Source of the DNA: a virus | Taxonomy: Duplodnaviria > Caudoviricetes | DNA: 30,184 nt | Reading direction: 5' to 3' (one strand) | IMG/VR virus record: IMGVR_UViG_3300042328_000098 | Span: 1-30,184 of that record | In this document: piece by piece, positions 1 through 24,214 of the stretch | Numbering within the stretch: the stretch's first letter is position 1 | Layout of the letters: every line of letters starts with the position of its first letter | Translations under genes and position numbers: made by a program | Notes under the pieces: generated by a model | Told to the model about the DNA's origin: nothing | Database searches by the model: none | The model's input: only the letters and a program-made list of their open reading frames with translations

Positions 1-3000
1 ATTTTTGATCTGTAAATCCGCTTACCTTATAGGTTAAATTGACCTGGAAGTTTTGTACCAGCGGCAGTAGATATTTTGCCGGGCTGACGCCTTGGTTGAT
101 CAAATATTCAGTAATCCAGTTAATATAACCAGCACCGCGATAAACTATACCAGCACTAGTATTACCATTATAGTCAACTGCAGACTGTGTAATTTGTCTA
201 TTTGTACTATCTTCAAGGTACTGAGTAGTTTCTGTTATAATGCCTTGTACGTCGGTTGAGAAACTATATAATGCGTTTAGCGGGGTATATGAGTTTACAT
301 CAATTAAGGTACCAAAATACTTGGCTGGTTTTAATAATGCGAGGGCTTGTTGTGCAGCGTACGGGAAATCGCTGCTCGTACGCCAGGCAAATTCCACAGG
401 ACCTTGTTGGCCAATAGCCCAGGCTGCGCCTGCTTGTTTGCTGTTAAATGTACGACATAACAATTGTGCCACACTGATTAAGTTACCGTTTTCATCTACT
501 GGAATAAAATCTGACAGGCCAGGGCGTACATAATGTGGGTCAATGCCTTGACGATCACCGTAACGGATGTATCCTGCTTCTAAATCGTCCCATAGAACTT
601 TATTGCCGCCAGTAAATGGTGCAGGACCATAGAAGCCTTGCCACCAGTCTGGTTGACTAGGAAATCCTAACATTTCCCAAGGTGTTAAATGCGGACGAAT
701 TGTATCATAGAAATACATATAACATGCACGCCAACTACCCGGCAACAATTCACCATTTACACGATCGCGACTTGAACTGTAGTTCCAAGTGAACGGATCA
801 TTGGGGTCAAAAGTATCATTAATAGTATAATCAAGTTTGTTGTTACCAACCCAGTTTAAGAAACTTTGACTTCGCACTTGGTTTGCATCTGCTAATGTAT
901 AATCGCTACTTCTAAATTTACCCGGAACTACACTAAAGATCTCGCTAAATGTAGTATTTGCAGATAATTTAATATTGTTATAGATACGTAGTTCTAATTC
1001 AAGTAAGAAGCTATCGCGATAGTCACCGAAACTTGGAGTAATACTACCATCGTGGCCACGAATAACAGTTGTAGATGTTCTATAAGTGTCATCTACAAAA
1101 ATCTCAGGAGTGTATCTCGGCCATAGTCCTAACTTAGACGGAGTTTCTGGAATATAGTTACCATCAGTGTTACTATACTCAACAATTTTAATAATGTCGC
1201 CAACTGCCAACGCAATAGTAAAATCGATACTTGGCGTATCTGTTCTAAAGGTGTAGTCGAGCCCTTTAATAAGCTGCTGATCATTTAAATAAACCAACAC
1301 AGCTTGATTGCTTAGTTTTGTATCACTAAAAATATTTGTAATTTCGTAATTTGTCTGCAACGGATCAAATACTTCAAAGCCGTCGATTGCTCCTATTTGT
1401 CCAACAATATTTTTTAACGGACCGTAAGGTACCATGTCACTATAATACCAAGGGAATGATTTATTTTTAACAATATTAATTCTTGTTAAAATCTTATCAA
1501 CGCTGCCTATAGGATCTGTTGGGTCAATACCTTCAAGACTAGTGCTCAATTCTAAGAATTTGTTTTTAAATTTAGTGTATTCTTGTTGAGTATAACGAAC
1601 ACTGTTAATAAAGTTTGCTTGTTCGTCAATTAAAAATAAACTTGCATAAGGTACAGGGGCACTGTGTTTAAGAATGGTACCGCCCTGTTGCTTAATATCA
1701 ATATCACGTAGATTACTTTGTGCTAATACATCACCTTCAACAATTGTACTGTTTTGTGCCAATGCTACTAAGTGGTTACGTAGCTGGCCTAGCGTTAAAC
1801 TATCAATATCAATGTTCTGTGAATTTAAATCTAAATTTTGTGGAACTTGATAAAATGCTGTAGAACTTATTTCGTTACTATAGACTAAAATATCAATTTG
1901 ATCGTTAATATTTAATGTAGTACTAATAGTGATTTGATTACCAACAATTGTCCAATCGATTGTAGGTTTTAAATATACAAAATTCTGGAATACTTTTACA
2001 TAAGGAATAGATTGTTCATCGCTTACTGGTGTGATGTCTAAGGTAAACGTATCAGTATAACCGTTGATATTTAGATAATTGTCAGGGTTTGTTGGCTCAG
2101 TATAAACAAAGCTGAATAGCTGATATTGTTTGCTTTGCTCTGGAACTGTTAGCCATGTATTTTTTGGATCCAATGTTTGGCTATCTACAATTTTTTGAAT
2201 GTAGCCTAGATTAACATTACGCGACACAATCGTTCCAGACTCGTCAACGTAACTAAAGGTATCAGTATTAAAAAAGTTTTGGAATTTAATATCACCTTGA
2301 GTGGTAAAATTCTTATAACTTAAGTAAAAATTAGTAATAGCATTACCATTTGCATCATATACAGGTGCAACAGGGCCTCTACTTAACACACTATCAGTAG
2401 TTCCTGTAGTTGCTCTATCATATCCAAAGATCTGTGTGCCAATAAATGTACTACGAGTATACTGGCTTAGACTTTTACCTTGAATAACTTCTCCTGTACT
2501 TAGATCTAGTCTACTGTCTAAGACATCAAATAATGGGGGTTGTTGTAGATATTCTTTTTGTTGGCTTTGATTCCAATTAACCCCATCAAACCACCATTGG
2601 CTACCTTTATATATTCCTAGTTTAACCACTGTGGTATTGTAGGCAATAACATCTCCATCGGCCGCTTTTGTAAGTTCAACATAATAAGGGCCCGATGGTA
2701 ATTGTAACGAGTTAACGCTATATTGAACTAACGTTAATAGATAAATTTTATTTTTAACCAGCGGATCAGTGTCGTTGCCAAAAATTACACGTAGACCGTC
2801 TGGGTAGGCAATGTCGCCGTTGCTATCAAACAGCTCAATACCAAATACACTAGTGTATATTTTACCTTGTAGGTCAATGAACGCATTTTGAATAGTTGTG
2901 TCTAATACGTCAATCGGTGCTTTAGCAATACGACCATCATTGACCAATTGCATATTAGATTCAAATTGTACAATAGGACGTTGGCCACGAATACCATTGG

Positions 3001-5104
3001 TAAAGGTCGGAACAGTGCCATTATAGGCCGCAGTAGCAGTAATTATATCAACATGGAACCAACGATTGGTTCGTGCCCATGCGTTGCGCTCACGACTAGA
3101 ACGATTGATCGTAATATAATCAGGAAAATATTCACCTGGGTAGTTTACTGCAATTTCATCGATATATGATTCCGGTGTTACTAGTTCGTCGACGGGCACT
3201 AGCTGTATGCCACCACCAATATCACCGACCTGTTCAACATAAAATTGACTATTTTGATAGTATGCCGGGGCCACATCATCACCAAATTGCACTTTAAGCC
3301 CTGATGTAAATTCAATACCATTAGGACTAGTATAGTTTTGCTGGCCTATAATATCAGTCTCTACATCAATTGTCCATCCAGAATATTGTATAACTTTGAT
3401 TGGAGTATAGATATTCGGTAACAGACCATCTTGAATCCACAATTGATCATTTTGTGAAGTTAATAAGGGAACCGTAGCAAAGAAGCCGTCGTAATCTTTA
3501 AAGAATTCTTTGTTGGCATTCGCAATGCCAAGTTTAATATAGACCTTCTCACTGACTGCTACATCTTGCGTATGAACTAGTTTAAGCAACGGGTCACCGG
3601 ATGCAATACTTGTAACTATAGTGCCGCTGGCGATGTCTGTGTACGACGCTGTTACATTCATTACTCCTGTATCGTTAGTTAAGGTAAATTCACTTCCGCC
3701 AGCGGTGTCGCTAATTGTAAATGTTGTTACTGAAGTAACATCTTTAATATAGTAGGTAGTACCAGAAATTATCCCTCCTACTGCTGGGTTTCCAACAAAT
3801 ACCACAGGCATGCCTGCTACTAACCCAGTTGTAGTTGTAACAGTAATATCGTTAGTACCAGATGCAGTTGCAGACAGTGCAGTTATGACATCTGTACGTT
3901 TTATAGTTGCATTAGCTGATATAGTAACAGTATCAGGAACATAAACATATTCTTGTCCCGCAGTTGCGTCATATAATAGCGAAACTACCTGACTTCCTAC
4001 TGTTAAACTTGTACCAGCAATAATATTTGCAGCAATAGGTGTATCTAAACGTAATTTTTGACCAATGTCAACATAAACCACACGCCATATGTCATAACGA
4101 TCTTCTTCAGCAATAACCGTGTTAGCATCGTAACCCGGAATAATATCGCCATCATTATCAACTACTACAGGATTAGTCCAGGCTTCTTCGCCTGCATTTG
4201 TCCACGTGTTAACATCAACAAATATAGTATATCTGCCGTTTAGTTGACCTGTGATACCTGCATATTGTGGATAGGCAGCTAAGAACTGACTTAGAGTTTT
4301 ATTAGCTACCTGACTGTATGGAATAGGGGTAGCATAGTCTACGCTAAACACAGTAGGCATATTAACATAGCGATCTTGTGCATAGGTTTGTGGTACTTTG
4401 AATGTTACCGTGCCGCTATCGGCTCCATTATTTTCTACACCAAATACATCGCGCGAACTTACACTGGGTGTGGCACTAACTACACCGTCTACACCAGTCT
4501 CTGTTTGAATCCAAAACGGCACACCCGGTTGGTCAACTACAAACTCATAAACTCCGCCGCGGGCACAAATAATACTGTTATCAACAACACCGTTGTTTCT
4601 AAATATATAACGACCGTTAGCAGCATCACGTGTCACGGTGTAGGTAATCGTTAAATCAACCCCGCTGGTGCTTACATCAACCGGGTCAGGTCCATCTGGC
4701 AGCCAATAGTATTGACTAAAATTAATTAATTTGTCAAAACTAATTTTAGGATCAAATGTATAATAATCTTGTTCAAATAAACGACTGTGATTATTTGTTA
4801 GGCCACCGTAGTAACCAATCTTATCTAATAGATCAATATAGTCAGCAACAAAGGTAACATTGTTTTGTTCGTCTTTAATTACAACGCCCGGCTCTAGTTG
4901 ATAATTTTGTCTAGTGGCGTTATATTCAATAACATAACTATCACCAGTTTTATATGTAGGAGCAAATTTACGACCGATATATCCATAAAGCGTTTCTAAG
5001 TTTGGTTCAGTTACTAACTGATCCATTGTAGCGGCTAAGAATTTCTTATTAGCATCACTTTGGAATACGGTAGGTAAAAATTTGTAGGTTTTTCTTGTTG
5101 CCAT
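1..5104 (-). CDS. Giant virion structural/baseplate wedge protein, over 1700 aa, partial (runs off the left edge; absent from the ORF track)
   Basis: ATG at 5104 reads MATRKTYKFLPTVFQSDANKKFLAATMDQLVTEPNLETLYGYIGRK...NYQLEPGVV...FDKLINFSQYYWLPDGP. Spot checks in the same frame are open near 3600-3900 and at the edge (VQNFQVNLTYKVSGFTDQK). Lies directly downstream of the gp6-like gene. Confidence 0.85.
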   Translation of the reverse strand, partial: MATRKTYKFLPTVFQSDANKKFLAATMDQLVTEPNLETLYGYIGRKFAPTYKTGDSYVIEYNATRQNYQLEPGVVIKDEQNNVTFVADYIDLLDKIGYYGGLTNNHSRLFEQDYYTFDPKISFDKLINFSQYYWLPDGPDPVDVSTSGVDLTITYTVTRDAANGRYIFRNNGVVDNSIICARGGVYEFVVDQPGVPFWIQTETGVDGVVSATPSVSSRDVFGVENNGADSGTVTFKVPQTYAQDRYVNMPTVFSVDYATPIPYSQVANKTLSQFLAAYPQYAGITGQLNGRYTIFVDVNTWTNAGEEAWTNPVVVDNDGDIIPGYDANTVIAEEDRYDIWRVVYVDIGQKLRLDTPIAANIIAGTSLTVGSQVVSLLYDATAGQEYVYVPDTVTISANATIKRTDVITALSATASGTNDITVTTTTGLVAGMPVVFVGNPAVGGIISGTTYYIKDVTSVTTFTISDTAGGSEFTLTNDTGVMNVTASYTDIASGTIVTSIASGDPLLKLVHTQDVAVSEKVYIKLGIANANKEFFKDYDGFFATVPLLTSQNDQLWIQDGLLPNIYTPIKVIQYSGWTIDVETDIIGQQNYTSPNGIEFTSGLKVQFGDDVAPAYYQNSQFYVEQVGDIGGGIQLVPVDELVTPESYIDEIAVNYPGEYFPDYITINRSSRERNAWARTNRWFHVDIITATAAYNGTVPTFTNGIRGQRPIVQFESNMQLVNDGRIAKAPIDVLDTTIQNAFIDLQGKIYTSVFGIELFDSNGDIAYPDGLRVIFGNDTDPLVKNKIYLLTLVQYSVNSLQLPSGPYYVELTKAADGDVIAYNTTVVKLGIYKGSQWWFDGVNWNQSQQKEYLQQPPLFDVLDSRLDLSTGEVIQGKSLSQYTRSTFIGTQIFGYDRATTGTTDSVLSRGPVAPVYDANGNAITNFYLSYKNFTTQGDIKFQNFFNTDTFSYVDESGTIVSRNVNLGYIQKIVDSQTLDPKNTWLTVPEQSKQYQLFSFVYTEPTNPDNYLNINGYTDTFTLDITPVSDEQSIPYVKVFQNFVYLKPTIDWTIVGNQITISTTLNINDQIDILVYSNEISSTAFYQVPQNLDLNSQNIDIDSLTLGQLRNHLVALAQNSTIVEGDVLAQSNLRDIDIKQQGGTILKHSAPVPYASLFLIDEQANFINSVRYTQQEYTKFKNKFLELSTSLEGIDPTDPIGSVDKILTRINIVKNKSFPWYYSDMVPYGPLKNIVGQIGAIDGFEVFDPLQTNYEITNIFSDTKLSNQAVLVYLNDQQLIKGLDYTFRTDTPSIDFTIALAVGDIIKIVEYSNTDGNYIPETPSKLGLWPRYTPEIFVDDTYRTSTTVIRGHDGSITPSFGDYRDSFLLELELRIYNNIKLSANTTFSEIFSVVPGKFRSSDYTLADANQVRSQSFLNWVGNNKLDYTINDTFDPNDPFTWNYSSSRDRVNGELLPGSWRACYMYFYDTIRPHLTPWEMLGFPSQPDWWQGFYGPAPFTGGNKVLWDDLEAGYIRYGDRQGIDPHYVRPGLSDFIPVDENGNLISVAQLLCRTFNSKQAGAAWAIGQQGPVEFAWRTSSDFPYAAQQALALLKPAKYFGTLIDVNSYTPLNALYSFSTDVQGIITETTQYLEDSTNRQITQSAVDYNGNTSAGIVYRGAGYINWITEYLINQGVSPAKYLLPLVQNFQVNLTYKVSGFTDQK

Positions 5105-19027: not shown

Positions 19028-19596
19028 TTGGGTTATTTGGTGATAGTTTTGGAGTACAAAAGGATTGTGAACCGTTTGAAAGTTGGGTAACTTTATTATC
19101 TAAAGATTATGGTATTATCAATCATTGCGAATGTGGTGTCGGTGAGTATAAAATATTAGAACAGCTGCGTCAAACAGATTTATCAGTTTTTGACCATATA
19201 ATCATTACCCATACTAGTGCTACCCGGGTGCATGTTAAGCAAAATCCTGTACACATTAATAGTGTGTACCATAAAAATTGTGATATAATATATGCAGACA
19301 TAGCTGAAAGAGATGACGCATTTTCGCAAGCATGTCAGCAATATTTTAAATATATTTTTGATATTGAGTATGCAATCGATATACATAACATGATATGTGA
19401 AAAAATTGATCGTTTGTTAGATAAAAAAAATGTTACGCATATAACACATTTTGATTATACCAATCTATATAGTTTTCCCAACATGAAAAATTTTTATAAA
19501 CTATATTTAAATAACAAGGGCGAAGTAAATCACTACAATAAGTACGGCAATCAACAAATATATCAAACATTAAAAGATCATTTATGTTCAGAATAA
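19024..19596 (+). CDS. Second SGNH hydrolase-like protein (190 aa; start revised to ATG 19024)
   Basis: MIGLFGDSFG (block I), CGVGEYKI, C-terminal VNHYNKYGN; ATGA overlap with the preceding stop. Confidence 0.6.
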   Translation: MIGLFGDSFGVQKDCEPFESWVTLLSKDYGIINHCECGVGEYKILEQLRQTDLSVFDHIIITHTSATRVHVKQNPVHINSVYHKNCDIIYADIAERDDAFSQACQQYFKYIFDIEYAIDIHNMICEKIDRLLDKKNVTHITHFDYTNLYSFPNMKNFYKLYLNNKGEVNHYNKYGNQQIYQTLKDHLCSE

Positions 19597-21356
19597 AAAA
19601 TCTCACAGTACGCAACTTTATGAGTGTAGGTAATGCTACACAGGCCGTAGACTTTGATCGTAGAGACCTCACTTTGGTCTTAGGCGAAAACATTGATTTA
19701 GGTGGTGATGACAGTGGAGCACGTAATGGTACAGGTAAAACTACTATCATTAACGCACTTAGCTATGGTCTATACGGCACAGCACTTACTAACATTAAAA
19801 AAGATAACTTAATCAACAAAACCAATGCCAAAGGTATGTTGGTTACTATTGATTTTGAAGTTAATGGCGAAAGTTATCGTATCGAGCGTGGGCGCAAACA
19901 TAATGTACTTAAATTCTATATCGGTGATGTAGAGCGAGAAAGCAAAGACGATAATAGTCAAGGTGATAGCCGCGAAACACAAGCCGAAATTGAACGCTTG
20001 TTAGGAATGTCGCATGACATGTTTAAACACATTGTAGCTCTTAACACTTACACAGAGCCGTTCTTAAGTCTTAAAGCAAATGAACAACGCACCATTATCG
20101 AACAGTTACTCGGTATTACTCTACTATCAGAAAAGGCAGATGCGCTTAAAGAACAGGGTAAAGCTACTAAGGACGCAATTCAACAAGAAGAGTTCAATAT
20201 TAAGGCGATTACTGACGCAAATGGCCGTATTCAAGAGCAAATTGAGAGCCTAAAGCGTCGACAAACTATGTGGACTACCAAACATGCAGAAGACGTAACA
20301 AAACTGCAAAATGCCTTAGATGAACTATTAAAGATCGATATCGATAGTGAAATACAAGCACACAAAGACCTTACAGCATATAATCAAAAGCGTAAGGATT
20401 TAGGTGACTTAGATAAAGCTATCCTACGTGCTGACGCAGATTGTGTTAGAGAACAAAAGCTCGTAGACAAGACAGAAAAAGAAATTAGTGACTTAGAAGC
20501 GCACACTTGTTATGCTTGTGGGCAAACATTCCACGATAATAAACATGAAGAAGTGTTAGCAGGTAAAAGGGCTATCTTAGCAGAAGCACACCAACAGTAC
20601 ATTGAGTTGTTTGGTCAACTACAATTATTCCAATCAACTAGAAAAGAACTAGGCGAATTAGGCCAACAACCAAAAGTATTCTACGATAAAGAAGAAGATG
20701 CTATTCATCATCGTAGCACTGTAGCAAGCCTACAAACACAGTTAGCAGGTAAACAGGCAGAAACTGATCCTTATGATGAACAGATTGAGGAAATGAAGAC
20801 TACTGCCCTAGCTGAAATTGATTATGGTGTAATGAATGAGCTAATGCGTGTTAAAGAACACCAAGAGTTCCTATTAAAATTATTAACAAACAAAGATTCG
20901 TTTATACGTAAACGTATTATTGATCAGAACTTAAGCTATTTAAATGCACGCTTAGGTTATTACCTAGATAAGATTGGCTTGCCGCATAGCGTTAAGTTCT
21001 TAAACGATCTGAGTGTTGAGATTCAAGAACTAGGCAGAGAGTTAGATTTTGATAACTTAAGTCGCGGTGAACGTAATAGACTTATCCTTAGCTTATCGTG
21101 GGCGTTCCGTGATGTGTGGGAAAGTTTATATCAACCAATTAACCTATTGTTTATTGATGAGCTTGTTGATTCGGGTATGGATACATCAGGTGTCGAAAAT
21201 GCCTTGGCTATCCTTAAGAAAATGACTAGAGAGAATAATAAGTCCATCTGGTTGGTGTCGCATAAAGATGAACTAGCAGGTCGCGTAAACAATATTTTAA
21301 CAGTAGTTAAAGAAAACGGGTTTACCACTTATAACACCGATGTAGAAATAAAGTAA
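19584..21356 (+). CDS. gp46: Recombination ATPase subunit, gp46 / Rad50-SbcC family (590 aa)
   Basis: Walker A NGTGKTT, zinc hook CYACGQ in the coiled coil, signature LSRGE, Walker B LLFIDE, D-loop SGMD, H-loop VSH. Confidence 0.95.
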   Translation: MFRIKNLTVRNFMSVGNATQAVDFDRRDLTLVLGENIDLGGDDSGARNGTGKTTIINALSYGLYGTALTNIKKDNLINKTNAKGMLVTIDFEVNGESYRIERGRKHNVLKFYIGDVERESKDDNSQGDSRETQAEIERLLGMSHDMFKHIVALNTYTEPFLSLKANEQRTIIEQLLGITLLSEKADALKEQGKATKDAIQQEEFNIKAITDANGRIQEQIESLKRRQTMWTTKHAEDVTKLQNALDELLKIDIDSEIQAHKDLTAYNQKRKDLGDLDKAILRADADCVREQKLVDKTEKEISDLEAHTCYACGQTFHDNKHEEVLAGKRAILAEAHQQYIELFGQLQLFQSTRKELGELGQQPKVFYDKEEDAIHHRSTVASLQTQLAGKQAETDPYDEQIEEMKTTALAEIDYGVMNELMRVKEHQEFLLKLLTNKDSFIRKRIIDQNLSYLNARLGYYLDKIGLPHSVKFLNDLSVEIQELGRELDFDNLSRGERNRLILSLSWAFRDVWESLYQPINLLFIDELVDSGMDTSGVENALAILKKMTRENNKSIWLVSHKDELAGRVNNILTVVKENGFTTYNTDVEIK

Positions 21357-21562: not shown

Positions 21563-21754
21563 ATGGCAACAACACATGAACAAATCGTAGCAGCATATGA
21601 TGCATACCTGGCAGAAAATGAGAAGTTTGAAGGCAAAGGCGTGGGCGCAGCAGGAACACGTGCTCGCGGCGCACTAGGCGACCTAGGCAAATTAACTAAA
21701 GCTCGTCGTGCAGAAATCCAAGAGAAGAAAAATGCTGCCAAGGCAACGAAATAA
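21563..21754 (+). CDS. Histone H1-like nucleoid protein, Hc1 family (63 aa)
   Basis: EKFEGKGVGAAGTRARGALGDLGKLTKARRAEI resembles the Hc1 core KGNKAAG.RAR..L..L.K..K..R; strong SD AAGGAG. Confidence 0.7.
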   Translation: MATTHEQIVAAYDAYLAENEKFEGKGVGAAGTRARGALGDLGKLTKARRAEIQEKKNAAKATK

Positions 21755-21757
21755 ATA
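21752..21757 (+). promoter_or_regulatory. Late promoter TAAATA, 5 nt upstream of the GIY-YIG ATG
   Basis: AATAAATA-GACTT-ATG, no SD; overlaps the upstream stop codon. Confidence 0.5.
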
Positions 21758-21762
21758 GACTT

Positions 21763-22197
21763 ATGGCATATGAATATCCTTGGACGTACAATGGTGTAAT
21801 ATTTGACTCTGAGGATATTCAAACCTATTATGGCTTTATATATAGAATAACAAACACAGTAAATGGTCATGATTATATTGGCCGCAAGTACTTTACTACC
21901 ATCAAAAAGAGACCACCTCTAAAAGGCAAGAAAAATAAACGACACGAAGTCATAGAAACAGACTGGAAAGATTATTGGGGCTCATCACACCGCTTAATAG
22001 AAGATATTGAGCAACTAGGCAAAGAGAAATTTACTCGTGAGATTATACATCTGTGTAGCTCAAGAGGCGAAACTAATTACTTGGAAGCCTATTACCAATT
22101 TAAGGAAAGTGTCTTGTTGCGTGAAAACAACTACAACGGCATTATTCAACTTAAACTTGGTAAAAATTCCGTAAAAGATTTAAAAATTACAAAATAA
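21763..22197 (+). CDS. Stand-alone GIY-YIG nuclease (Seg-like catalytic domain only, 144 aa)
   Basis: GFIYRITN...YIGRK, DWKDYWGSS, FTREII, NYLE, YNG motifs; no NUMOD or HTH extension; resembles the short GIY-YIG gene conserved in many T4-like phages. Confidence 0.85.
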   Translation: MAYEYPWTYNGVIFDSEDIQTYYGFIYRITNTVNGHDYIGRKYFTTIKKRPPLKGKKNKRHEVIETDWKDYWGSSHRLIEDIEQLGKEKFTREIIHLCSSRGETNYLEAYYQFKESVLLRENNYNGIIQLKLGKNSVKDLKITK

Positions 22198-22204
22198 CAA
22201 ATTA

Positions 22205-22660
22205 CAGCCACTAATGCAGATGTGATCTGTGTCATGAGGGGATCGTGCTACGTTTAAGTACCGCACGTGGAACGTGTAGATAAGACTACACACATGACGG
22301 CAATGGCAATATCAATAGGTGTAAAAGCCGAATGATCCAGGCTCCGTAACATATCGACCTGGGAGCAAAACGACAGTTGGCTAACTACGACTGTATGAGC
22401 TACCGCCAGAGAAATCTAGAGTAGGGGGTACAGGCTGACCGCCTCCGTGCTATTGAAAGCAATCTCTTATAGTTAGTGTGACGCAGTACTCGGATGATGC
22501 GGCGGTTGCAATTTGCCTCGGACAGGTAAATTGTGACTGATATCTGGATGATAACGTTTAAGAGCTTACATTAATTCAAAGTAAATTAACTTAATAAAGA
22601 ATAGAAGAAAAGGCTTTAGAGCGAAAGCGATAAAGCAGATGTCGTAAGACATCTTTCTTG
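22205..22660 (+). ncRNA. Candidate large structured non-coding RNA, family unassigned
   Basis: ORF-free, GC-richer than its flanks over 22205-22555, with many nested stems, G-U wobbles favouring the + strand, GNRA tetraloops and an 8-bp loop-to-distal pairing (see findings). Confidence 0.6.
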
Positions 22661-22812: not shown

Positions 22813-23046
22813 TTATTTGTTTTTCCAAATTGAATACAGTACCCACACTGCCACCAAACCAACAACACCTTCTGCTCCTAATGATTTAACAATCGCTGTT
22901 ACACCACCAATAACATCTGTCGCTGGTAAGAATGGGATAGCTGCTCCCTTGAATAATACTTCTAGAACGATAGCTAAAGCTAGTACACTAACTATCGTAT
23001 CAGCAAGGGCGCCTGCCCAGTTCTTAATTGTTGCTAAGATTTCCAT
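22813..23046 (-). CDS. Small integral membrane protein (77 aa)
   Basis: Hydrophobic helices IVSVLALAIVLEVLF and GVVGLVAVWVLYSIW, basic C-terminus; SD GGAGG; TAAATA at 23093-23098 and its own terminator. Confidence 0.8.
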   Translation of the reverse strand: MEILATIKNWAGALADTIVSVLALAIVLEVLFKGAAIPFLPATDVIGGVTAIVKSLGAEGVVGLVAVWVLYSIWKNK

Positions 23047-23132: not shown

Positions 23133-23363
23133 TTAGAAGAATGGCAAATGACTCTTTTGAGTGGTTTCTAAGTTGTCTTTTACTATTTTGTTGATGATTT
23201 CTTTTTCTGTATTGCTTAACAGCATACTATCGTCATAAGATAACCCACCACGCATATACCAACACATACGCAACGCATCATCTTTAAGGGCTCTTATGTC
23301 CTTGTCGTAACCTTCAATTAAGGCCACAACTTCGGCGTTATCTAAGACTAAGAGCCTTTTCCG
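23133..23363 (-). CDS. gp51-like / tail chaperone second segment, probably reached by -1 frameshift from the upstream gene
   Basis: LRMCWYMRGGLSYDDSMLLSNTEKEII core; only a GTG start (23327) with no SD; the frame is open back to the slippery site. Confidence 0.7.
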   Translation of the reverse strand, partial: RKRLLVLDNAEVVALIEGYDKDIRALKDDALRMCWYMRGGLSYDDSMLLSNTEKEIINKIVKDNLETTQKSHLPFF

Positions 23364-24214
23364 AAAAAACTTGCAAAGTCAAACACGATATCAATCTCAA
23401 AGGCTTTGCTACATTCTTCATTGCCACAGGTTACTGTAAATGGTTTAATATTGGCCTGTTTGTTATATTCGTCTAATCGAGCTTTAACGGCCTTAACGGT
23501 TTTATTATCGCAGTTTGAGTAGAATTCTTTAATGTAACTACTATCGATTACTAGTTGACCATCTTCTAATTCAATACTTTCTGTACTGTCTGCAGCAATC
23601 ATGATGTTAAGATCAATTAGTTTGTTTAACTGACTGTTGAATTTTGTCTGTACATCTTCGGCAGAATCGCCAGCCTGCTGTAGTGATCTTAATAATTGTT
23701 GTTCTTCAAAGGCAATGATATTAGTTTTATTAAGGCTAAAGTAAGGTTGTGGACGCAGTTTGATCTTAAGATCGTCAACCTCGATGACCTTTTTATAATT
23801 TGGAGTTTCAATACCATTTAACACTACACCTAGGTCAATAGCATAGTCGTGTTCTGTTTCGCAATGCGGACATGTACTTGAGAAATCCATCTTATTACCG
23901 TAGCTGGCAATACGTATAGCAATAATAACGCTGTCTACGTCGATGCTGGGCATATTCCATGCATCTTTAATATTTGGACAGCAACTATGTATTACATCGA
24001 TAACACCCTGTCCGTTTAACAGTGCATCTGGTGTTCGTAAAATAATTTCATCTTTGGTGCTCATTGCTAGAATAGGCAACTCGCCGGTCATTGACAATTC
24101 TAAACTGCCTTCTGGCCAATATTGCCCGCGGCTAGGTAGTTTAGTGTAGATCACTGGTTGTCTAAAGTGTCTAGCCAGTGGATTAGTTAAATTAGACGAT
24201 TGCGTTTGAGTCAT
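23348..24214 (-). CDS. Baseplate hub assembly / tail assembly chaperone, T4 gp26-like (288 aa)
   Basis: YTKLPSRG..W, MSTKDEIIL, DVDSVIIAIRIASYG, CPHC and C-terminal CGNEEC...ASFF; adjacent to the tape measure gene. Confidence 0.7.
   Translation of the reverse strand: MTQTQSSNLTNPLARHFRQPVIYTKLPSRGQYWPEGSLELSMTGELPILAMSTKDEIILRTPDALLNGQGVIDVIHSCCPNIKDAWNMPSIDVDSVIIAIRIASYGNKMDFSSTCPHCETEHDYAIDLGVVLNGIETPNYKKVIEVDDLKIKLRPQPYFSLNKTNIIAFEEQQLLRSLQQAGDSAEDVQTKFNSQLNKLIDLNIMIAADSTESIELEDGQLVIDSSYIKEFYSNCDNKTVKAVKARLDEYNKQANIKPFTVTCGNEECSKAFEIDIVFDFASFFGKGS
23363..23369 (-). other. Slippery heptamer T TTT TTC (putative programmed -1 frameshift)
   Basis: In-frame X XXY YYZ pattern four codons before the TAG of 23348..24214; the -1 frame joins the downstream ORF. 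Confidence 0.7.

Follow-up and report, generated by a model that had tools for sequence, protein, structure and literature searches.

Architecture of the locus

The DNA examined here (the window) is a stretch of 30,184 nucleotides, positions 1–30,184 of IMG/VR record IMGVR_UViG_3300042328_000098, and its source is a T4-like jumbo phage. Genes for a late sigma factor, gp47, gp46, an Hc1-like protein and a 144-residue GIY-YIG nuclease are followed by a non-coding stretch, a converging gp26-like gene and the portal gene. Our subject is an element within the non-coding stretch, at positions 22207–22654 of the plus strand, composed of a structured RNA, a 3′ module of repeats and a hairpin, and terminal hairpins. 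Its approximate bounds are those given by two homologue alignments and pair counts. The element is a conserved, roughly 450-base, predicted double-pseudoknot RNA.

The closest cultured relatives by gp46 are PA5oct-like phages (50%), followed by Phosso, Atu_ph07 and the GAP32/Rak2 group (35–37%). The gp46/Rad50-like gene (19584–21356, plus strand) anchors the nuclease slot on its upstream side and the gp26-like baseplate gene (23348–24214, minus strand; PF12322) on its downstream side. The slot holds the nuclease (21763–22197, plus strand; PF19835) and, as an optional member, the 63-residue Hc1-like protein (21563–21754, plus strand; PF07432). Upstream of the nuclease, an ATAAATA (21751–21757, plus strand) resembles the T4 late promoter consensus; of 36 distinct upstream stretches, 24 have a TAAATA no more than 30 nt away from the start of the nuclease gene.

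The RNA begins with a multi-stem 5′ domain (22207–22301) that varies between subfamilies; one subfamily carries the Rfam motif Polynucleobacter-1 at the same place. Two-sided changes are seen at 5/6, 5/5 and 5/6 pairs of its three main stems. Alignment and pair counts next define a hairpin with a conserved GCUC..GAAA[AC]A loop motif (22337–22362), followed by a core (22373–22476) that is delimited by covariation and pair counts and corresponds to Rfam cow-rumen-2 in one relative. Within the core, the loop (22381–22387) of hairpin 22373–22394 pairs with 22470–22476 to form pseudoknot 1, 22407–22409 pairs with 22435–22437 to form pseudoknot 2, a further helix joins 22418–22421 to 22464–22467, and the hairpin at 22424–22446 holds the most conserved letters. 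Beyond the core, two 12-nt direct repeats (22487–22498 and 22541–22552) flank a long G–U-rich hairpin (22503–22539) that is 93.5% paired, with seven pairs varying one-sidedly and four on both sides. An A/T-rich spacer, poorly conserved in the alignment (22557–22612), leads to two terminal hairpins (22613–22654), one a tandem-GA stem topped by GCGNAAGC and the other a stem closed by C-GNAA-G, of a type that is extra-stable in single-stranded DNA. All of these parts lie on the plus strand. The C-GNA(A)-G hairpin is present in 57 of 81 members, as compared with 1 of 67 control stretches, and a GAGCG(N)NAGCGA-type motif in 56 of 81.

Covariation in the predicted fold

Homologues were gathered from a nuclease-based search, which gave 80 loci, and from two pattern scans of viral contigs (an estimated ∼570 and ∼140 stretches), which gave at least 239 more. 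The core motif is present in 65 of the 80 nuclease-found loci and as a variant in one; the remaining 14 contigs stop short of its position. Homologues were called by profile search with the searched motif masked, and 205 of the 286 pattern-bearing loci among the matches listed were accepted. This procedure replaced a heuristic based on the hairpin plus repeats, which was too loose.

Among 41 distinct close homologues, 95.9% of cells pair (86.7% in shuffles and 30–44% in slid controls), and two-sided changes occur at 37 of 87 pairs, a value that none of 500 shuffles reached. Across 64 diverse homologues (effective number 52), 85.4% of cells pair. The figure for pseudoknot 1 in this set is 94.3%, with two-sided changes at all seven of its pairs, and pseudoknot 2 gives the strongest covariation signal of all (z 22.6); its pairing is present in 75 of 79 representatives. 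These counts include no correction for phylogeny. Folding energy is modest and barely separates the two strands (z −2.74 on plus, −2.61 on minus), so that the case for an RNA rests on covariation. One-sided G–U changes in the long hairpin show a single-strand fold on the plus strand.

A first-pass annotation, made from the letters of the window, had drawn much of this fold by eye. It had read the stems GCAGAT/ATCTGT (22216–22221/22225–22230) and GTCATG/CATGAC (22231–22236/22293–22298), the latter enclosing 22244–22248/22263–22267 and 22274–22279/22286–22291, as well as CCAGG/CCTGG, ACAGTTG/CGACTGT and a 16-bp stem with four G–U pairs, and all are present where it had placed them. Its long-range pseudoknot is pseudoknot 1, the covariation of which is given above. 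Only its AGA-GAAA-TCT GNRA hairpin must be given up, as it is present in 2 of 79 representatives and is excluded by pseudoknot 2. The homologues, close and diverse, support the fold as a whole, and with it the second of the two options that the annotation had offered, an unassigned large phage non-coding RNA. A long-range GAGAU/AUCUC pair proposed by RNAalifold involves invariant columns and was replaced by helix 22418–22421/22464–22467.

Direct repeats that change in concert

The first-pass annotation overlooked the 12-nt direct repeat. Its two copies could be compared in 69 of 82 representatives (13 were skipped and one was mis-parsed), and they change in concert. At repeat positions 7, 9 and 10, copy 1 agrees with copy 2 in 69 of the 69 parsed representatives, across about 25 different 7-mers, and positions 6 and 12 match between copies in 94%. 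The repeats are identical within one copy of the element, yet differ between phages and between paralogues of one genome. The dinucleotide at the centre of the repeat self-pairs in 93%.

The 12-mer is confined to its two places, in the window as in a complete relative of 329 kb. No enrichment of its complement was detected in the RNA or upstream. The template strand is therefore the sole available complement of the repeats. It is rare for two repeats to be held strictly identical while lacking a complement. This constraint points either to an RNA that pairs with the gene encoding it or to realignment on a template; in a phage RNA, each would be a novelty. The repeat is also the sole candidate for the variable, guide-like segment that the first-pass annotation had suggested looking for, and no target for it was found in the flanks, the window or the complete genome, host genomes lying outside this search.

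Relationship to catalogued RNAs

Rfam covariance models were run against the window, 16 relatives and six cultured-phage loci, and matched two fragment families and nothing else. The window itself matches no known family at gathering score, and models for RNase P, group I/II introns, tmRNA, small ribozymes, GOLLD and ROOL found nothing in the window and the relatives searched. Polynucleobacter-1 (RF01718) scores 78–118 bits (gathering 37) in four of the 16 relatives, just upstream of the shared core; its model has no hit on the window, where the 5′ domain is unlike it. The description of this motif is said to mention a nearby cyanophage-like gene. Cow-rumen-2 (RF02947) lies over the core in one of the 16 relatives, L169 (77 bits; gathering 66), and the window aligns to it in the same register at 15.6 bits (E 4.6), far under threshold. 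The core model built here scores the cow-rumen-2 locus at E 3.5e-6; model R1 comprises 53 rows, including one (L125) in the wrong orientation. We infer that Polynucleobacter-1 and cow-rumen-2 are fragments of one RNA family, which would join two orphan Rfam motifs into one molecule.

Other searches returned little. Comparison of the window RNA with cultured phages by blastn gave A/T-rich noise alone, and a strict pattern scan of bacterial genomes gave one hit, judged to be chance, with a pattern too narrow to prove absence from bacteria. Likenesses to RNase P, group I introns, 16S helix 27 and dif/loxP sites rest on letters variable in the family, and were dropped; EGFOA is a short RNA of another kind. 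Neither the complete RNA nor its multiple copies or repeats were described in the literature searched, which left out most subscription journals and some supplements. The element is a new, large and ornate phage RNA whose fragments are partly catalogued, and no known family combines its features. In one contig, a second model match (L089:1645–1774; E 9e-4) lies just upstream of the main copy, a possible tandem duplication.

An exchangeable nuclease slot

The nuclease is a single-domain GIY-YIG protein of the SegE type (PF19835, E 1e-36), which agrees with the catalytic-domain-only protein of the first-pass annotation. Its predicted fold (pLDDT 87) is nearest to the catalytic domain of I-TevI, with a probability of 0.99 but an E-value of 0.07, and carries a lysine-rich hairpin insert; a sequence search of the PDB with the nuclease returned nothing. 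The family occurs in 464 cultured phage records. Despite being a GIY-YIG nuclease, it goes under the label 'NAD synthetase' in PHROG 447 and in many cyanophage records. In six cultured GIY-YIG records that were checked, there is no RNA-sized gap behind the gene and no model hit.

When loci are collected by the RNA instead, the upstream gene proves to be variable. Among the matches listed, 77 distinct loci have 1400 nt or more of upstream sequence and make up this set; some of them were picked out by eye and some are near the window clade. The slot holds the GIY-YIG gene in 46, a PD-(D/E)xK nuclease (PF24608; PHROG 244, 'RusA-like resolvase') in 24, neither in seven and both in none. Five partial genomes of the PD type lack PF19835 and five of the GIY type, one of them complete, lack PF24608, although fragments prove little; one genome, G002, has the PD-(D/E)xK gene together with an Endonuclease_7 match. 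Neither PF24608 nor PF02945 was found in the complete GIY-YIG-type genome; the resolvase scan of G006 covered 148 of 342 called proteins with models other than those of RuvC and RusA. In the cultured phage GAP32, the gene after gp46 is annotated as Endonuclease VII and lies in the opposite orientation to the RNA, ahead of an 800-nt gap, and Munch is alike. The slot is thus occupied by three unrelated nuclease folds.

The distance and orientation of the slot gene are also not fixed. In 10 of 80 loci, nuclease and RNA are separated by a gene of 0.7–1.7 kb, the two are ∼10 kb apart in G013, and the slot gene is inverted in L092, L249, GAP32 and PA5oct. The first-pass annotation had proposed that the RNA partners or guides the GIY-YIG protein, and had named occurrence of the element independently of the GIY-YIG gene as evidence to the contrary. 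Such independence is what we observe, in the loci with a PD-(D/E)xK gene or neither nuclease, in GAP32 with its Endonuclease VII, and in extra copies that stand alone. Given Endonuclease VII in the GAP32 slot and the mutual exclusivity of the slot nucleases, the GIY-YIG protein is likely to be the phage's Holliday-junction or branch resolvase, an exchangeable neighbor of the RNA rather than its partner. The simplest reading is an exchangeable resolvase slot adjoining an independent RNA, and a resolvase role would be a candidate function for a widespread family now mislabelled 'NAD synthetase'.

Nucleases 99% identical to that of the window accompany RNAs with different repeats in L001 and L003, which suggests recombination at the border between gene and RNA. 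In L014, L026, L031, L033 and L069, a free-standing homing-type GIY-YIG gene of 224–233 residues sits at the 5′ end of the RNA, directly after the nuclease stop, with a short duplicated piece of the RNA before it and a rebuilt 5′ domain behind; in these phages the RNA gene looks like a homing target. Elsewhere in the window, a hydrophobic 77-residue protein without a Pfam or PHROG match is encoded at 22813–23046 (minus strand) and recurs in L032 and in metatranscriptome contigs. The complete open reading frames (ORFs) of positions 1–5100 are all short over 5 kb, where a long gene may extend past the end.

Copies in cultured phages

The gaps of GAP32 and Munch are homologous. They keep both pseudoknots by means of compensating letters, and they also have the core hairpin and the one flanked by repeats. 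A model built from freshwater sequences alone matches five of the 10 GAP32 and Munch copies (E 9e-4, 1e-3, 2e-3, 0.065 and 2.3) and none of six Kyanoviridae-type control loci; homology is argued from moderate model scores together with architecture and synteny. The GAP32 sequence in turn matches 62 phage records, at one to five places each. Members of the family come from uncultured freshwater giants as well as from about 60 records of cultured phages, whose hosts are Escherichia coli, Salmonella, Erwinia, Serratia and Yersinia.

GAP32 has five copies, at 35.3, 98.8, 177.5, 261.5 and 340.7 kb of 358.7 kb, and Munch has five, at 40.6, 100.2, 182.0, 263.1 and 316.8 kb of 350.1 kb, all on the plus strand and spaced by 53–84 kb. 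The chance of such even spacing is 0.004 for GAP32 and 0.003 for Munch; because the two phages are related, we count it as one observation. All 10 copies retain pseudoknot 2 and identical repeats of 6–7 nt, with concerted changes in single paralogues, as judged by eye. Two of the extra copies were inspected and lie among unrelated genes with no nuclease alongside.

More distant relatives are less clear. In PA5oct, Phosso and RsoM2USA, the same slot is an ORF-poor gap of 1.0–1.4 kb in which the model finds nothing significant; the gaps of Phosso (L346:1986–3001) and RsoM2USA (L347:4400–5802) look structured. Paralogues of the PA5oct slot sequence lie at 12.9 and 246 kb, the latter within the published ncRNA004 (246116–246734), which was detected by RNA-seq at 0.02–0.08% of phage reads (PMC7318152). 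These paralogues share with the RNA family a loop motif and a G-rich end hairpin, and their best two model hits (E 0.28 and 0.31) are not significant. Several tiny 'hypothetical' coding sequences at 75666–77180 of PA5oct (NC_071039; L344:1478–2992) may be pieces of a non-coding element.

Transcription

RNA libraries were consulted as assembled contigs alone, which give neither strand nor ends. Pieces of the element and flanking genes occur in libraries of several studies. In one lake run with a close strain, coverage is 64x for Hc1, 26–50x for the nuclease, 39.7x for the 5′ domain plus core of the RNA and at most 3x for gp46. A second run of the same study has no contig over the RNA; in run X11 the nuclease is covered and the RNA is not. 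The coverage is a weak hint of co-transcription. Upstream of most of the 10 GAP32 and Munch copies, extended −10-like sites were identified by regular expression and by eye.

A proposed origin primer and its alternatives

To our knowledge, it is not known how jumbo phages of this kind begin replication. We tentatively propose, as the likeliest of the readings considered though one that could well prove wrong, that the element is a primer transcript resembling ColE1 RNA II at a replication origin of Rak2/GAP32-like jumbo phages. RNA polymerase would transcribe the element, and the folded core would keep the nascent RNA in a shape able to re-pair with its own template DNA. Since the repeats are identical, either of them, once in the RNA, could anneal to the template strand of its counterpart, with the intervening hairpin looped out. 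The RNA–DNA hybrid would persist until an RNase H cut it and left a primer. In this the repeats may parallel the G-stretch pairing of ColE1. On the displaced strand, the A/T-rich spacer and terminal hairpins would become accessible as signals for the loading of helicase and primase. The position beside gp47–gp46 and the resolvase would be the operon geography of a replication–recombination module. All steps from hybrid formation onward are inferred. A gene for an RNase H-like protein is present in the complete freshwater genome, and in Phosso an RNase HI gene directly follows the slot gap.

A primer at an origin would account for the even spacing, common orientation and own promoter-like sites of the copies, for repeats constrained to identity only, for the DNA-type hairpins downstream and for the location among replication and recombination genes. 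A broader and still more tentative form of the proposal is that in giant T4-like phages DNA replication may be primed by a dedicated RNA with a double pseudoknot, of which a genome has either a single copy or five at even intervals. The concerted repeats would lock this RNA to its template, Polynucleobacter-1 and cow-rumen-2 would be pieces of it, and the minimal GIY-YIG protein beside it may have replaced Endonuclease VII as resolvase. Five evenly spaced and co-oriented copies make the start of replication directly testable, and the cultured relatives 121Q and Sharanji allow bench tests in E. coli.

Several observations weigh against an origin. Three are left unaccounted for: the complete 329-kb freshwater genome has one copy alone; the nearest promoter-like site in the window clade is of the late type and lies before the nuclease, which is odd for an origin; and GC skew shows no switch at the element in freshwater genome G006 or GAP32 and follows the coding strand, in a test that is weak for co-oriented unidirectional or recombination-driven replication. 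In the lake run, the repeat and hairpin module is on a separate contig at 3.4x, as compared with 39.7x for the 5′ domain and core. A fixed CTC/TCT difference separates the repeats, and downstream there is a slight excess of repeat complements (17 versus 10 expected, 7 of 200 swaps) with no shared position. Atu_ph07, Vibrio 2.275.O and SCTP-2 have no gap or model hit at the slot, which was the region searched in these genomes.

The depth difference in the lake run fits equally a stable free RNA that ends after pseudoknot 1. We regard as rather unlikely, though the best of the alternatives, that the element is a free RNA acting in trans as a scaffold, a decoy or an assembly of RNA alone, comparable to GOLLD and ROOL. 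The repeats would then form an internal loop with two-fold symmetry or a surface for dimerization, and the 3′ hairpins would be a terminator. The elaborate, conserved tertiary fold, the coverage of the core in one RNA library, the self-pairing centre dinucleotide and the PA5oct slot paralogue within ncRNA004 would all suit it. Symmetric self-pairing, however, needs complementarity and not strict identity, yet there are no asymmetric intermediates. Such an RNA also has no need for five evenly spaced, commonly oriented copies, and the tRNA cluster is not near.

Two further possibilities appear improbable. The element could be a template RNA on which a polymerase copies repeat 2, the hairpin and repeat 1, and then realigns to make tandem DNA or RNA repeats as telomerase or DRT2 does, an arrangement to which a hairpin that brings identical repeats together behind a pseudoknotted scaffold would be suited. 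The reverse transcriptase domain RVT_1 (PF00078) was found in none of the five genomes searched (one complete), where controls were detected; the unit is not tandemly repeated in the complete genome, and no back-jump joints were listed across eight RNA runs, in which contigs drop rare forms. Alternatively, a catalytic or mobile RNA (a ribozyme, intron-like RNA or retro-element) may have spread to several sites, as the double pseudoknot with its invariant unpaired letters, the several copies per genome and, in one run, the contigs that abut where pseudoknot 1 ends might indicate. Its syntenic position is fixed over deep divergence, between genes and not within them, and the window and relatives have no Rfam ribozyme or intron match; moreover, the 1-nt gap between the contigs is explained by an A/G polymorphism.

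Least probable of all is that the RNA serves the adjacent nuclease as partner, guide or inhibitor, possibly by mimicking a branched substrate of the resolvase in the slot, whichever that is. In 70 of the 77 RNA-first loci, either of the two nucleases is in the flank, mostly 200–350 nt before the core and even at 37–50% protein identity, nuclease and RNA have similar depths in one RNA library and the GIY-YIG protein has its lysine-rich insert, but the three unrelated slot folds, inverted orientations, inserted genes and ∼10-kb separation, extra copies without a nuclease and near-identical nucleases with differing repeats all speak against it.

Comparison with known systems

The two Rfam motifs each capture part of the RNA. 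Polynucleobacter-1, described in Weinberg 2010 (PMC2864571), is listed as a probable cis-regulatory motif, and the table of that work names freshwater taxa. It resembles the present element in coming from such taxa and in standing directly before the shared core in relatives; it differs in that its 141-nt model spans the variable 5′ domain alone. The 106-nt model of cow-rumen-2, in contrast, covers the core alone and has no function attached.

Two systems with nucleases invite comparison. As in IscB and TnpB with omega RNA (HEARO), a small nuclease gene adjoins a structured RNA, but here the nuclease is swappable among three folds, the RNA stands alone, and there are no transposon ends and no guide. 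The slot nuclease is more like T4 Endonuclease VII (gp49) and the Hjc/RusA-like resolvases, with the same place after gp46 and mutual exclusivity; unlike Endonuclease VII, the protein here has a GIY-YIG fold, and its probable resolvase role is read from context.

Among large RNAs, GOLLD and ROOL are likewise large, multi-stem, phage-borne and of no known function (PMC5737381). The present RNA differs in lacking an Rfam match, in lying away from tRNA genes and in being a core gene of a lytic jumbo-phage group. For the proposed primer role, the closest analogy is ColE1 RNA II, a pre-primer that hybridizes to DNA before RNase H cleaves it, and the unrelated RNAs that act likewise in MRB plasmids (PMC6380287). 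By the proposed analogy, the element would be a lengthy folded RNA, transcribed outside the genes from a promoter of its own, with single-strand signals downstream (PMC6380287). No sequence likeness to RNA II was seen, with no search aimed at it, nor was an antisense RNA I found among RNA contigs that give no strand, and the element would differ from it in belonging to a phage genome, in having up to five copies and in its pseudoknotted core.
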